Source: Escherichia coli
Lineage (GTDB): Bacteria; Pseudomonadota; Gammaproteobacteria; Enterobacterales; Enterobacteriaceae
Assembly (NCBI RefSeq): GCF_003790525.1
Contig: NZ_CP033635.1
Length of the DNA stretch: 64,000 nt
Reading direction: 5' to 3' (one strand)
Below the pieces are notes generated by a model that was not told the DNA's origin, made no database searches, and was given only the letters and a program-made list of their open reading frames with translations. Below are positions 47,844 through 53,954 of this stretch, piece by piece. Each line of letters opens with the position of its first letter. Position 1 is the stretch's first letter. Made by a program: the position numbers and the translations under genes.

Positions 47844-48359
47844 TTAATTATAATTGATCATAAATATCGCATCCGCTTTCGCCACACCAGGCTGAACACC
47901 GCTGGCTAACGCTCGATAATTGGCAAAAAAGTTTAGTGTGACATTGCCATTTGCATCAACTTCCTCAGTCGAGCTCGCCTCCCCCAGTGCGAGCCGGGAG
48001 CGATCGCTATTACGTAATTCGATGGCGACGGTTTGTGCCATTGCGGGATCATCCAGAGCCAGCAGGTTGGCATCAGATGCCGGCGTTCCCGTAAATAAAA
48101 TCGCAACTGAACCCGGAGGACATCCCTCCAGCCGCAGGCTAAAAGGGACGAGTGCCGTGGTATCGCCAGCGCTCAGTAATTGTGTCGTAGGCCATCTGCC
48201 TAAATCTACCGTCTTATCCTTATCCGCTGTGTTTACGGTACAGGAGAAATCAACAACGTTACCGTGCAAATTGATATTAATCGTTCCTAAAGGGTCAACT
48301 GCCCATCCACTGGAACTCCACAGTAGCCCGCAGAAACAGCTAAAGAGTACTCTTCTCAT
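47844..48359 (-). CDS. sfmF: Fimbrial minor subunit SfmF
   Basis: 171-aa protein starting MRRVLFSCFCGLLWSSSGWA (signal peptide); the listed ORF has a 65-codon upstream extension. Confidence 0.88.
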   Translation of the reverse strand: MRRVLFSCFCGLLWSSSGWAVDPLGTININLHGNVVDFSCTVNTADKDKTVDLGRWPTTQLLSAGDTTALVPFSLRLEGCPPGSVAILFTGTPASDANLLALDDPAMAQTVAIELRNSDRSRLALGEASSTEEVDANGNVTLNFFANYRALASGVQPGVAKADAIFMINYN

Positions 48360-48369
48360 TCTCCGTACC

Positions 48370-49377
48370 TCATTGATAATCGACGCGTAAATACCCCAGC
48401 GCGCTAAACGGCCCTTCGGTCGGTTTTTGACCGGTAATACTGATAGGCCAGGCGCGAAGTGTGACATTGGCTGCCGCAGCTGCATCCAGACGGAAAGGAA
48501 TAACGCTATTGAGATCGTTAGGCGTGATCGGCGTATCGTTCTGATCGGCCACAATAAAACCTAAATCCTGATTGTCCGACACCATCGCCTGACCAGAAAC
48601 GGCACTGGCTTCCAGACGCATTGTTAAATAAGCCTGCGCAGCAACATTCGTACATTTGATCGCAATGCTCTTGGTTTGCGGCATGACACCAGCTGGTCGA
48701 TTCCCCGGCCCTGCCGCACTAAATAACGATGCGCCGATATCACCAAAATCAAATTCAACAATTTGCCCGGCATTTAATTCGCAGTTTTGCGGTACTTCAA
48801 CCCGGCCACCAAAACTAATGGTATAAACAGGTGTAACCAACGGATCGTTAGGCGTTGATGTCACATACACGGTAAACATCACCTGTCTGGGGATCTCCAC
48901 CATGTTAATAAAGGGACGAATAACCTTTAAACGAAATATCAAACGAGAATCCATCACCCCGAACGGAAGGTTTTGCGAAACGTTAGGATCTGTTCCCATA
49001 CGAATATAATTTTGCGGAGGGAATTGAATATCCATCACGCTATCAACCAGACTCATCGCACCTAATAGATAATCATTTAATTGCATATATTTATAATTAT
49101 CGATAGTTTCCTGAACAATAAAGTTGGTGACATAACTACGGTATGTATAATTCACCAGCGTGCCGGGTGGACAAATTGCTGATACACCTACCCAGCCGGA
49201 TTTTTCCGGTAAAACAACAATCTGCCCTGGCTGGTTATTGGTGCTATTAAAGACATTTGAGAGATCATAGTGTTCATCTTCTGCTACGCCAGTACTATTT
49301 GCACAAACAGTAGCCCAGGATATGTTTGCCAGACACAAACATGCCATTGCCAATAATAATCTGCAGATTATCTTCAT
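48370..49377 (-). CDS. sfmH: Fimbrial adhesin-like protein SfmH
   Basis: 335-aa ORF with a signal peptide; the annotated start may instead be the internal Met 10 codons downstream. Confidence 0.85.
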   Translation of the reverse strand: MKIICRLLLAMACLCLANISWATVCANSTGVAEDEHYDLSNVFNSTNNQPGQIVVLPEKSGWVGVSAICPPGTLVNYTYRSYVTNFIVQETIDNYKYMQLNDYLLGAMSLVDSVMDIQFPPQNYIRMGTDPNVSQNLPFGVMDSRLIFRLKVIRPFINMVEIPRQVMFTVYVTSTPNDPLVTPVYTISFGGRVEVPQNCELNAGQIVEFDFGDIGASLFSAAGPGNRPAGVMPQTKSIAIKCTNVAAQAYLTMRLEASAVSGQAMVSDNQDLGFIVADQNDTPITPNDLNSVIPFRLDAAAAANVTLRAWPISITGQKPTEGPFSALGYLRVDYQ

Positions 49378-49389
49378 TGATAATTTCCT

Positions 49390-52029: not shown

Positions 52030-52722
52030 TTAGTTTAAGTTCACTTCTCTGACCGGGGTTACTGAACCATAATCATTAACGGTCTGAAATTTCAGCTTTC
52101 CCTGCACTCCTGAGGGTAAGGGAATTTGTGAATTAACTCTGGGTGCAGCCATAGCATTCCCCAGTTTTTGGCTGCCCACTTGCAAGTTAACCAGGGTGAC
52201 ATAAAAAGGTGATGGATTATGAACATTGATATAGTTACCGGATCGCGAAAACTTGAGTGTGTCCGGCGCTTCTGCGGGTAATTCTTGTAATTGAATTGGA
52301 CGGAGAAATAATTTCATGCGCGATAAAATCGCCAGTTGCAAAACATTCCTGCCGTTCAATGCATTTTTATCTACCGAAGGGATCGTCTTAACATTCATCC
52401 AGAACAGAGACTCACGATCTGCCGCCAGCGGTGGACCGGTGTAAATAATACGCAAAGTATTTTCGCTTTTGGGTTCACTAACAAACAGTGGCGGTGTAAT
52501 GATGAATGACTTTTCTTTTACACCGCTGCTGTTTTCAATCCACGAATTGACCAGAAAGCGCTCATTGGTATGGCTATTTCTGATCCATACCGCAGTCTGT
52601 TTAGCATCAGCGGGATAAATAATACGCGTGGCACCTAATGCGATCCCTCCGGCAGCATGGGCGCTGGTCGAAATGATTAAATAAAATATAATGAGCATCA
52701 ATAACTTTATTTTAGTCATCAT
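52030..52722 (-). CDS. sfmC: Periplasmic fimbrial chaperone SfmC
   Basis: 230-aa protein starting [13 protein letters not shown] (signal peptide); the listed ORF has a 41-codon extension. Confidence 0.9.
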
Positions 52723-52940
52723 AGTTAATACGCCTTGTGTATTCCTGACGGCAAAAATAAGGAGTATAAAGAAATGATTGCTTTGGTTTCTTACACACAT
52801 CATTCCCTTTTCATTTAATAAAGCGGCATGATACAAAGTGAACATGATTTCGATTTACATTGCCACCATACCGCTTCAGACAACCGGTACATTACTTTGT
52901 TATAAGACGTGATATATAATTCAAAACAACGTGGTTTTGA

Positions 52941-53483
52941 TTATTCGTATCTCATAATAAAAGTCGCGTCAGCATTTGCTTGCCCTGCTGATGCACTTGT
53001 ACCGGTGCCTTTATAACGTGCAGAAAAATGAAGAACGTTGGTCCCGGGGATCAAGTTCTGGTTGGTTGAGAAGCTATTCCCATCAGGTTTGAGAATTGCG
53101 GATGTATTATCAAGTATTTCAATACCGACACCCGTTGCTGTTGTTGTATTAGTACTGGATGCAATGGCCAATAAATTATCATTGATTGCATCCGCCTGAC
53201 CAGAAAATGCAACGGCAGCATTAGCGGCAACGACAGGATCGCAGTCGTTCAACTGTATAGTGAATGGAATTAATGCAGAGGTATTACCAACAGCATTGAA
53301 AATATCGGTACGATATTGACCGAGTGTGACAACCTGGTCTGCCGAGTCAGTATTCACTGAACAGGCAGCATTCACCAGTTCGCCTTCAAAGTGAATTGTA
53401 CCGCCATCTACAACGGCAGCATAACTACCCGTAGCGGCGAATAGTGCGGCAGCCAGCGCAGACGAAATAAATCTTAATTTCAT
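52941..53483 (-). CDS. sfmA: Type 1-like fimbrial major subunit SfmA
   Basis: 180-aa protein starting [22 protein letters not shown]; the listed ORF has an 11-codon extension. Confidence 0.9.
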
Positions 53484-53954
53484 ATATATTCCTTCAATCT
53501 CATTTATCGACTCCACATCCGTATATAACCGATTACTTTATTTAAGACACTGATAGTAGTAAAATTCCTTTTTATCCTCTAAGAATGTCTTAATTGAAAA
53601 TATGCACTCTATTCTAAAAAATAGAGAGCCCCGTTAGATGAATATTTCCGCGCAAAATATATTCAACACAAATATAGACCTGAAGCGGTAAATTACCAGG
53701 CTGAAAATTCTTTTTATATTGTCAGGTATTTCTTAAATTATCTTAATCCTTAGACAAGGAAATAAATCAGTTCCAGATTTACAACGTCATCATGGACGAA
53801 AAATGAAGCTTTCAATCTCAGCGACGGTGCGCCTCACCTTCGCAAGAGGTCGCTTCACGCGATAAATCTGAAACGAAACCTGACAGCGCGCCCCGCTTCT
53901 GACAAAATAGGCGCATCCCCTTCGACCTACGTAACAGATGGAATCCTCTCTCTG

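Follow-up and report, generated by a model that had tools for sequence, protein, structure and literature searches.

Salmonella enterica carries a fimAICDHF-fimZYW-fimU cluster between folD and a tRNA-Arg(UCU) gene, and both FimZ binding and proposed H-NS sites have been reported in the segment upstream of its fimA. The corresponding position in Escherichia coli is occupied by the sfmACDHF operon and fimZ (b0530-b0535 in K-12). This operon was described as orthologous to Salmonella fim and as absent from phylogroup B2 (PMC3604780, PMC3559732). Unlike the type 1 fimbriae of Salmonella, sfm fimbriae were reported not to show affinity towards alpha-D-mannosides, and recombinant sfm fimbriae yielded only small afimbrial structures (Kisiela et al. 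2013, PMC3604780). The type 1 fimbriae of E. coli (fimAICDFGH) share the chaperone-usher architecture of sfm but are encoded at another locus, with a FimB/FimE invertible switch and a mannose-specific FimH.

As summarised in PMC5797941 and PMC3649669, Korea et al. (2010) found sfm to be cryptic and repressed by H-NS, and observed adhesion to eukaryotic cells when the operon was expressed constitutively. The folD/sfmA spacer is one of 78 "promoter islands", a 351-bp segment bound by H-NS and RNA polymerase and transcriptionally poor (Panyukov and Ozoline 2013, PMC3661553). Ogawa et al. (2022, Genes Cells 27:657), as cited in PMC12711010, PMC12471899 and PMC10767902, reported that FimZ up-regulates the sfm operon and induces Sfm pili in K-12, and that FimZ has to be phosphorylated for pilus-gene transcription to be induced. 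Furthermore, over-production of SlyA increased sfmHF expression 2.6-fold (Curran et al. 2017, PMC5797941). Published work on K-12 thus already covers the operon, its cryptic state, the H-NS-bound AT-rich spacer and induction through FimZ. Here, we compared these systems with the sfm locus of E. coli contig NZ_CP033635.1 (RefSeq assembly GCF_003790525.1), using a stretch of 64,000 nucleotides hereafter called the window.

The sfm operon and its genomic context

The five sfm genes are located on the minus strand in the order sfmA (52941-53483, 180 aa), sfmC (52030-52722, 230 aa), sfmD (49390-51999, 869 aa), sfmH (48370-49377, 335 aa) and sfmF (47844-48359, 171 aa). They are flanked by folD on one side, and by fimZ (47209-47841, plus strand) and a tRNA-Arg(UCU) gene (46891-46967, minus strand) on the other, an arrangement also found in K-12 and in other E. 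coli annotation. The tRNA gene, argU (fimU in Salmonella), was detected by ARAGORN and Rfam and forms the conserved end of the cluster; it sits at the equivalent position in Salmonella, Citrobacter and Enterobacter, whose loci share the order folD-sfm-fimZ-tRNA-Arg with K-12. The stop codons of sfmF and of the convergent fimZ are 2 bp apart, and a consensus scan returned no terminator-like hit between these two genes.

Genes, order, orientation and neighbours are the same as in K-12, and the DNA is 98.4% identical across 7.1 kb. SfmA does not differ from its K-12 counterpart, SfmC and FimZ differ by one residue each, SfmD is 2 aa longer in the window, in a Y-D repeat, and four substitutions and a 1-bp indel distinguish the upstream regions. 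Unlike K-12, the window has no DLP12 prophage at tRNA-Arg, and envY comes directly next. Usher phylogeny and locus position define the E. coli Sfm cluster (Wurpel 2013), and here we found near-identity to the K-12 sfm genes in a locus situated between folD and fimZ/tRNA-Arg. Protein identity with the Salmonella cluster, its positional orthologue, ranged from 57 to 71% (A, 64%; C, 63%; D, 71%; H, 69%; F, 57%; Z, 71%). Taken jointly with the assembly, regulation and evolutionary state discussed below, we consider it very likely that 47844-53483 is the E. coli sfmACDHF chaperone-usher operon, positional orthologue of the fimA(I)CDHF cluster of Salmonella, Citrobacter and Enterobacter. The operon in the window is an ordinary intact allele, and its observation adds little that is new.

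An earlier note on this DNA had described a complete, intact and tightly spaced operon. The gene identities, order and neighbours that it gave agree with K-12 and other E. coli annotation, and its claim of intactness is borne out by five ORFs devoid of internal stops that cover NCBIfam equivalog or subfamily profiles from end to end, above the curated cut-offs. The operon is indeed complete relative to the E. coli reference but reduced compared to the ancestral cluster, being without fimI, fimY and fimW. Likewise, tight spacing holds for sfmF-sfmH (10 bp), sfmH-sfmD (12 bp) and sfmD-sfmC (30 bp) but not for sfmC-sfmA, which are 218 bp apart.

Panyukov and Ozoline (2013, PMC3661553) regarded sfmA as a horizontal acquisition. 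The synteny that we and Wurpel (2013, PMC3559732) found across genera favours vertical inheritance with loss in some lineages.

Subunits, assembly proteins and predicted adhesin

SfmA contains a Pfam Fimbrial domain (residues 30-179) with the conserved N-terminal donor strand of a major pilin, and matches the NCBIfam FimA equivalog with 317 bits for a cut-off of 140. Its best sequence match among solved structures is PDB 6ERJ ("Type-1 fimbrial protein, A chain"), and E. coli FimA chains in the PDB were matched at an E-value of about 1e-40. SfmC combines PapD_N (1.5e-37) and PapD_C (6.6e-11) domains, as a PapD-like chaperone does, and reached 477 bits against the FimC equivalog (cut-off, 327). 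The three usher domains PapC_N, Usher (5e-222) and PapC_C are all present in SfmD (NCBIfam match, 1880 bits), and SfmF carries a Fimbrial domain and matches the NCBIfam "fimbria assembly protein" model with 330 bits. FimZ is an orphan NarL/LuxR-type response regulator with Response_reg and GerE domains and a 446-bit equivalog match. From established knowledge of the pathway, SfmC would act as the periplasmic chaperone for the subunits and SfmD as the outer-membrane usher, SfmA would be polymerised into the shaft by donor-strand exchange, and SfmH and SfmF would serve as the tip adhesin and as a minor or adaptor subunit, respectively.

SfmH covers positions 1-335 of the 335 of the Salmonella-type FimH equivalog, has its putative receptor domain at about residues 23-185 and its pilin domain at residues 187-335, and aligns with Salmonella FimH without internal gaps. 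The best fold match in the PDB for its AlphaFold2 model (mean pLDDT of 80) was the LpfD adhesin 5AFO (E = 7e-19, TM 0.65), followed by PapG and by FimH, which was far more distant (E = 9e-9). LpfD, PapG, FimH, CsuE and CupB6 were all matched over the full length of the model, in which SfmH is predicted to have the fold of two-domain tip adhesins. The product name "D-mannose specific adhesin FimH" given to SfmH is a transferred PGAP/NCBIfam name. SfmH retains T78 (NYTYR), a residue that we take to matter for mannose binding by Salmonella FimH; therefore, the reported lack of mannose binding is not explained by this residue.

Reduction of the cluster and variation among E. coli genomes

In most orthologous loci, about 650 bp that include fimI separate fimA from fimC. 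The 218-bp sfmA-sfmC spacer at this position (52723-52940, minus strand) contained no remnant of fimI: blastn against Salmonella fimI returned chance 8-10-mers only, and tblastn matched only the paralogue SfmA. A resemblance to fimI of an FTL peptide in the spacer, noticed by eye, was unsupported. Similarly, tblastn gave no hits for fimY or fimW between fimZ and tRNA-Arg, which are separated by just 241 bp, and the ~140 bp upstream of fimZ bear no resemblance to the promoter region of Salmonella fimZ. The sfmA-sfmC spacer harbours a predicted hairpin (52819-52878; RNA fold of -50.2 kcal/mol, z = -2.4), and one of the peaks listed by a genomic SELEX study of minor-sigma RNA polymerase falls in the spacer too (PMC5493296). 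An Rfam scan of positions 46000-56000 (E <= 1) returned only the tRNA and one spurious antisense hit; neither the leader nor the spacer yielded a known RNA element.

Such losses raise the question of whether sfm is a relic heading for loss, with ORFs that are still open but no useful fimbria, and an AT-rich silenced promoter that reflects disuse. At least 80% of the region was found in 4076 of the 5426 complete E. coli genomes, about a quarter being without the operon, and IS2 or IS1 insertions occur in the region in some genomes. This patchy distribution, the absence of sfm from phylogroup B2 and the loss of fimI, fimY and fimW are all consistent with a relic. So is a lesion at the start of the adhesin gene: the sfmH ATG is intact in the window, while K-12, in which sfmH is annotated as 325 aa instead of 335 aa, lacks its G through a 1-bp deletion, and this exact allele was found in 1486 of 4134 genomes (~36% of those positive for sfm). 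The absence of mannose binding and the small afimbrial structures reported by Kisiela et al. (2013, PMC3604780) fit the same explanation.

The mature N-terminal extension of SfmA, ahead of the donor strand, also speaks for a relic, as all sampled orthologues have at least 2 aa more, but it is weak evidence for a pilin defect. Kisiela et al. suggested that a 5-aa donor-strand deletion cripples SfmA; we did not retain this suggestion, as the extension is the shortest sampled yet falls only 2 aa below that of several orthologues.

Conversely, all five ORFs are intact in the window, and the dN/dS ratio relative to K-12 lies between 0 and 0.1 for four of them (sfmA, sfmC, sfmD and sfmH) as well as for fimZ, a sign of purifying selection. 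Throughout the species, conservation of the upstream region is 95% or higher. Furthermore, published work describes adhesion to eukaryotic cells upon constitutive expression (Korea et al. 2010, via PMC5797941 and PMC3649669), and the induction of sfm expression and Sfm pili synthesis by FimZ (Ogawa et al. 2022, via the citing articles PMC12711010 and PMC12471899). On balance, we consider it unlikely that sfm is merely a relic. From a practical standpoint, the comparison would help direct work on Sfm to strains whose sfmH, unlike that of K-12, is intact.

The AT-rich region upstream of sfmA

The region between sfmA and folD (53484-53954) spans 471 bp and contains 62% AT, compared to a mean of 47.3% for the window; 1.1% of all 471-bp segments are equally AT-rich. 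The bias is concentrated in the sfmA-proximal regulatory region (53484-53800, minus strand), in which AT content reaches 69%, a value attained by 0.06% of the 317-bp segments. In contrast, the 154 bp on the promoter/leader side of folD (53801-53954, plus strand) contain 47% AT and align from E. coli to Salmonella and Citrobacter. Mixed A/T runs of at least 6 nucleotides were strongly enriched in the whole region (20 vs a mean of 4.5, reached by 0.24% of segments), whereas homopolymer A or T runs of at least 4 were only mildly so (9 vs a mean of 4.4, reached by 6.7%). The stretch 53484-53800, in which over 300 bp upstream of sfmA are markedly AT-rich, coincides with the published 351-bp island, which maps to about 53463-53813, and we found no material difference between the spacer and the H-NS "promoter islands" (PMC3661553). 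Across the 4251 E. coli genomes with a match, identity of the AT-rich block is 95% or higher without exception. Between genera, an AT-rich upstream region is also present in Salmonella, while this sfmA-proximal part evolves fast, its length covarying with the fimbrial cluster.

The earlier note had taken the entire upstream region to be strongly AT-rich with many A/T tracts, which applies to the ~320 bp next to sfmA but not to the folD side, and to mixed runs far more than to homopolymers. Its view of a promoter silenced by nucleoid proteins agrees with the H-NS-bound island (PMC3661553) and with H-NS repression as summarised in PMC5797941. The same summary of Korea et al. (2010) reports the operon as cryptic, as the note had stated for laboratory conditions. 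The note also left the conditions of expression open, which is in part outdated given the FimZ induction cited above and the published SlyA effect. Drawing on this literature, the ~320 bp of AT-rich DNA upstream of sfmA would normally be kept transcriptionally silent by H-NS, and the operon would be turned on either by activity of FimZ, the orphan regulator encoded next to it, or by an antagonist of H-NS such as SlyA.

Could the region instead contain a fimS-like invertible switch, with phase variation by site-specific inversion as in E. coli fim? Its non-coding length and reviews that describe Salmonella-type fimbriae as phase variable are compatible with this idea. However, we found no promoter-sized segment with inverted repeats at both ends; the repeats present are short and 75-92% complementary, as is typical of AT-rich DNA. 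Moreover, the neighbours are folD, fimZ, tRNA-Arg and envY, with no adjoining recombinase gene, and all full-length matches in E. coli genomes are in one orientation and in a single piece. Bracketing inverted repeats and a linked recombinase being both absent, we rejected an invertible switch as exceedingly improbable.

It is just as hard to credit that the AT-rich stretch is mainly there for folD, the divergent housekeeping gene, as its upstream element or regulatory region, and is not a silenced sfmA promoter: the spacer is shared with folD, and the sole promoter-like hit with an extended -10 TG (CTGACA-17-CAAAAT, plus strand, 53880-53908) is on the folD strand, but conservation across genera is found in the 154 bp of normal GC content beside folD, the AT-rich part is sfmA-proximal and fast-evolving, and the homologous Salmonella segment carries the mapped fimA promoter together with FimZ and Lrp sites.

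Consensus scanning found no sigma-70 promoter facing sfmA in 53484-53954. Promoter-like hits over the whole region numbered 16, for an expectation of 16.0 in shuffled sequences, and terminator-like hits 12 for 7.1 expected. On the minus strand, the H-NS motif TCGATAAATT is matched once at 9 of 10 positions, beginning at 53510. The only small ORFs between sfmA and folD were unsupported frames of 20-48 aa.

A candidate FimZ operator that is degenerate in E. coli

Comparison of 80 related loci allowed us to define an inverted repeat, TCYTR-N8-YARGA, upstream of fimA. The exact repeat was found in 62 of the 68 non-E. coli loci. In this non-E. coli sample, all loci with a fimZ match carry it with at most one mismatch, and it is absent from the two loci that have a complete cluster but no fimZ. 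Furthermore, the repeat falls inside the FimZ-binding segment mapped in Salmonella. Conversely, with the 8-bp spacing kept, the closest E. coli match carries 2 mismatches, as many as the median for 2000 shuffles and thus chance level. A degenerate remnant in the candidate operator area (53731-53760, minus strand) is what is left of the conserved repeat in E. coli, where a TCCTT-N10-TAAGA variant is present in the upstream region and ~19 bp between the repeat and the -10 block are missing from the alignment. Within 53690-53800, TCCTTGTCTAAGGATTAAGATAATTTAAGA is a candidate for a remodelled FimZ operator.

The E. coli cluster is a trimmed derivative of the ancestral one that has lost fimI, the co-regulators fimY and fimW, and the canonical form of the inverted repeat, as found here, and FimZ would have to act through a remodelled site. 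A more novel reading, which we put forward tentatively and as a possibility open to considerable doubt, is that E. coli rewired the ancestral cluster so that phosphorylated FimZ activates sfmA via a non-canonical operator that works only after displacement of H-NS. As part of the same tentative proposal, either the left half-site of the repeat would have decayed or the spacing would have changed from 8 to 10 bp, with the loss of ~19 bp before the -10 block, and the common sfmH start-codon deletion would represent a second fibre state, adhesin-less or adhesin-poor, rather than random decay. Several observations count against our main explanation of an operon switched on by FimZ: the repeat that accompanies fimZ in all other lineages sampled is degenerate in E. 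coli, FimY, which is needed for full activation in Salmonella, is absent, no consensus promoter faces sfmA, recombinant sfm fimbriae reportedly gave small afimbrial structures only and did not bind mannosides, and the operon is missing from about a quarter of complete genomes or bears IS insertions in some. The candidate FimZ operator, conserved with fimZ across the sampled genera and degenerate in E. coli, and the frequent sfmH start-codon lesion could both be useful for studying how an adhesin cluster is re-regulated in this species.

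The sfmACDHF operon is intact in the window

The window is E. coli chromosome. Its 7.1-kb segment at 47000-54100 is matched at least partly in 5424 of the 5426 complete E. coli genomes, 4076 of which carry at least 80% of its length. Identity is 98.4% with K-12 and 100% with strain XDL, apart from an IS2 element inserted in the latter. The minus strand carries five intact ORFs, namely sfmA (52941-53483), sfmC (52030-52722), sfmD (49390-51999), sfmH (48370-49377) and sfmF (47844-48359), flanked on one side by folD (53955-54821, plus strand) and on the other by fimZ (47209-47841, plus strand), tRNA-Arg(UCU) (46891-46967, minus strand) and, directly after the latter, envY, encoding a 253-aa AraC-family protein. 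Together the five products carry a complete set of chaperone-usher domains according to Pfam: a pilin domain in SfmA, SfmH and SfmF, PapD_N and PapD_C in SfmC, and PapC_N, Usher and PapC_C in SfmD. Furthermore, each protein spans its NCBIfam profile end to end, with a score well over the curated cut-off.

Comparison with K-12 revealed no difference in SfmA, 1 amino acid in SfmC, 8 substitutions and a 2-aa Y-D repeat indel in SfmD, 4 substitutions in SfmH and 5 in SfmF. The absence of stops and frameshifts in this comparison confirmed that all five genes are intact, as the earlier note had claimed. Its description of the genes as tightly spaced holds for the sfmF-sfmH, sfmH-sfmD and sfmD-sfmC junctions (10, 12 and 30 bp, respectively) but not for sfmC-sfmA (218 bp). 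The SfmD indel is a 6-bp change in repeat number at codons 490-491 (window about 50530; YEYDYDYD here, YEYDYD in K-12), within a loop-like region that is variable in Salmonella too (YDYEYDSD).

fimZ and sfmF are convergent, with stops 2 bp apart (47841-47844) and no terminator-like hairpin found between them; the closest further minus-strand terminator-like site lies past fimZ, at 47120-47107. In Salmonella arizonae, 45 bp separate fimZ from the sfmF counterpart. A read-through transcript of fimZ or sfmF would be antisense to the opposite gene.

The sfmA-proximal upstream region matches a silenced promoter

The 471-bp folD-sfmA intergenic region (53484-53954) was initially described as strongly AT-rich, with many A/T tracts. 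Its 62% AT, compared with a window mean of 47%, is reached by just 1.1% of equal-sized windows. This bias belongs to the sfmA-proximal 317 bp (53484-53800; 69% AT, top 0.06% of windows), whereas the folD-proximal 154 bp contain 47% AT and are almost unchanged among E. coli, Salmonella and Citrobacter in our alignment. We take the latter segment as the promoter side of folD because a promoter-like site lies on the folD strand. Mixed A/T runs of at least 6 are strongly enriched across the region (20 vs 4.5), but pure A or T runs only mildly so.

Panyukov and Ozoline (2013, PMC3661553) listed the folD/sfmA spacer among 78 "promoter islands", which are AT-rich, bound by RNA polymerase and H-NS, and hardly transcribed, and devoted a figure to its divergence from Salmonella. 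Their 351-bp island corresponds to about 53463-53813 in the window. Korea et al. 2010, as cited by Curran et al. 2017, described sfm as cryptic and H-NS-repressed, with constitutive expression leading to binding to eukaryotic cells; Curran et al. 2017 also reported that SlyA over-production raised sfmHF. Three papers citing Ogawa et al. 2022 (Genes Cells 27:657) state that sfm is up-regulated by FimZ, that phosphorylation of FimZ is needed to induce pilus-gene transcription, and that FimZ is now a RegulonDB-curated transcription factor. The reading of this region as a silenced, cryptic promoter thus agrees with the published H-NS-bound island and H-NS repression, and the experiments proposed earlier, in an hns background and with over-produced FimZ, have therefore, from the H-NS and FimZ work as cited, already been done in K-12. 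The sfmACDHF observation is correct, its silencing interpretation is supported, and both are established knowledge for E. coli. Mildly new are a conserved FimZ-associated repeat that is degenerate in E. coli, the frequency of an sfmH start-codon deletion, and the precise extent of the deletions behind the E. coli version of the cluster.

A fimS-like invertible switch was excluded, bracketing inverted repeats and a recombinase both being absent. No Rfam family matched the leader or the sfmA-sfmC spacer.

A conserved repeat upstream of fimA is degenerate in E. coli

Cross-genus alignment of fimA upstream regions revealed an inverted repeat, TCYTR-N8-YARGA, present as one exact copy in 62 of 68 non-E. 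coli loci and with 1 mismatch in the four remaining fimZ-bearing loci. Both fimZ-less loci (Erwinia and Mixta) lack it. Among the relatives' loci (L004-L083), the repeat lies 170-350 bp upstream of fimA. The Salmonella copy, placed at about -82 to -65 by means of the motifs that Baek et al. 2011 quote, falls within the region mapped as FimZ-binding (-98 to -47), which makes the repeat a good candidate FimZ operator.

The best 8-bp-spaced match in E. coli, GATTAAGATAATTTAAGA (53748 to 53731), has two mismatches, the median for shuffled sequence. A TCCTT-N10-TAAGA variant occurs at 53760 to 53741, and the alignment shows E. coli to be without about 19 bp between the repeat block and a conserved -10-like TAATTT. 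In each of the 4251 E. coli genomes carrying the segment, its identity is 95% or higher, so the degenerate state is species-wide. Since FimZ is reported, in papers citing the original study, to activate sfm in K-12, it either uses this remodelled site or acts indirectly.

Deletions shaped the E. coli cluster

According to Kisiela et al. 2013 (PMC3604780), sfm is orthologous by position to the fim cluster of Salmonella, an evolutionary view with which Wurpel et al. 2013 agree. Our SfmD scan, with one genome per species, yielded 80 loci and revealed the cluster in Salmonella, Citrobacter, Enterobacter, Lelliottia, Yokenella and others. Unlike the Salmonella type, the E. coli version is missing fimI, fimY and fimW; the E. 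albertii locus is partial (sfmD onward only) and also lacks fimY and fimW. The fimI position spans about 650 bp in most relatives, compared with the 218-bp sfmA-sfmC spacer (52723-52940) in E. coli, where no fimI remnant was detectable. A hairpin of 60 nt is predicted within this spacer, at 52819-52878 (whole-spacer z = -2.4), and genomic SELEX with minor-sigma RNA polymerase recorded a binding peak in it; the spacer could act as an attenuator or an internal promoter.

At the other end, about 140 bp directly upstream of E. coli fimZ (within 46968-47208) show no similarity to the fimZ promoter regions of Salmonella, Citrobacter or Enterobacter. Homology returns at the argU promoter (TTGACT-16-TATAAT, 47026-46999). 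The fimZ promoter was replaced by the same deletion that took fimY and fimW.

The window carries the majority form of sfmH

In K-12 (locus L001), a 1-bp deletion removed the G of the sfmH ATG (window 49375-49377; about 5379 in L001), and because this start is destroyed, the annotated K-12 SfmH begins at a later ATG, giving a 325-aa protein whose signal peptide is truncated. Among the 4134 complete genomes matched by the window sfmH probe, the exact K-12 allele (67-nt junction probe) was found in 1486 and the exact window allele with its intact ATG (68-nt probe) in 2581, making the latter the intact, majority form. It follows that K-12 may not be well suited to work on SfmH function.

An AlphaFold2 model (28 orthologues, pLDDT 80) predicts SfmH to be a tip adhesin with two domains. 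Among solved structures the model best matches LpfD (5AFO; E = 7e-19, TM 0.65), followed by PapG and FimH; LpfD is also the sole PDB relative by sequence. Salmonella FimH aligned to SfmH without internal gaps, with identities of 68% (receptor domain) and 75% (pilin domain). PGAP and NCBIfam label SfmH as the type 1 fimbria "D-mannose specific adhesin FimH", a name probably over-transferred from Salmonella, since Sfm was reported to lack mannoside affinity (PMC3604780). The same sources list SfmA as FimA and SfmC as FimC.

Decay and constraint in the sfm operon

The view of sfm as a decaying relic draws real support from its patchy distribution, the IS hits, the loss of accessory genes and the lesion at the sfmH start. 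Kisiela et al. 2013 (PMC3604780) found phylogroup B2 to be without sfm and Sfm to be without mannoside binding, considered its natural expression not known, and proposed that a 5-aa donor-strand deletion might cripple SfmA assembly. The mature SfmA N-terminus (AVVD before GGTIHF) is the shortest among the sampled orthologues, but by just 2 aa relative to several of them, and the conserved strand is intact; we take its shortness as weak evidence of an assembly defect. Conversely, the ORFs are intact, dN/dS is low and function on induction has been published. The sfm proteins diverged from Salmonella about 10 times faster than FolD (dN of 0.21-0.32 vs 0.025), and within E. coli the dN/dS of 0-0.1 for sfmA, sfmC, sfmD, sfmH and fimZ in one strain pair argues for purifying selection on these genes.

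No DLP12-type prophage or integrase lies beside tRNA-Arg(UCU) (46084-46967), so the argU attachment site is unoccupied in this strain; K-12 and strain GMF065 carry intD and prophage genes there. Past envY, the window continues with ybcH, nfrA, nfrB and cusRS, an order common to strain XDL. In the otherwise near-identical strain XDL (L003), cusF and nfrB carry annotated frameshifts, while both are intact ORFs in the window (35654-35986, 110 aa, and 39814-42051, 745 aa, respectively); the XDL lesions are either strain-specific or sequencing errors.
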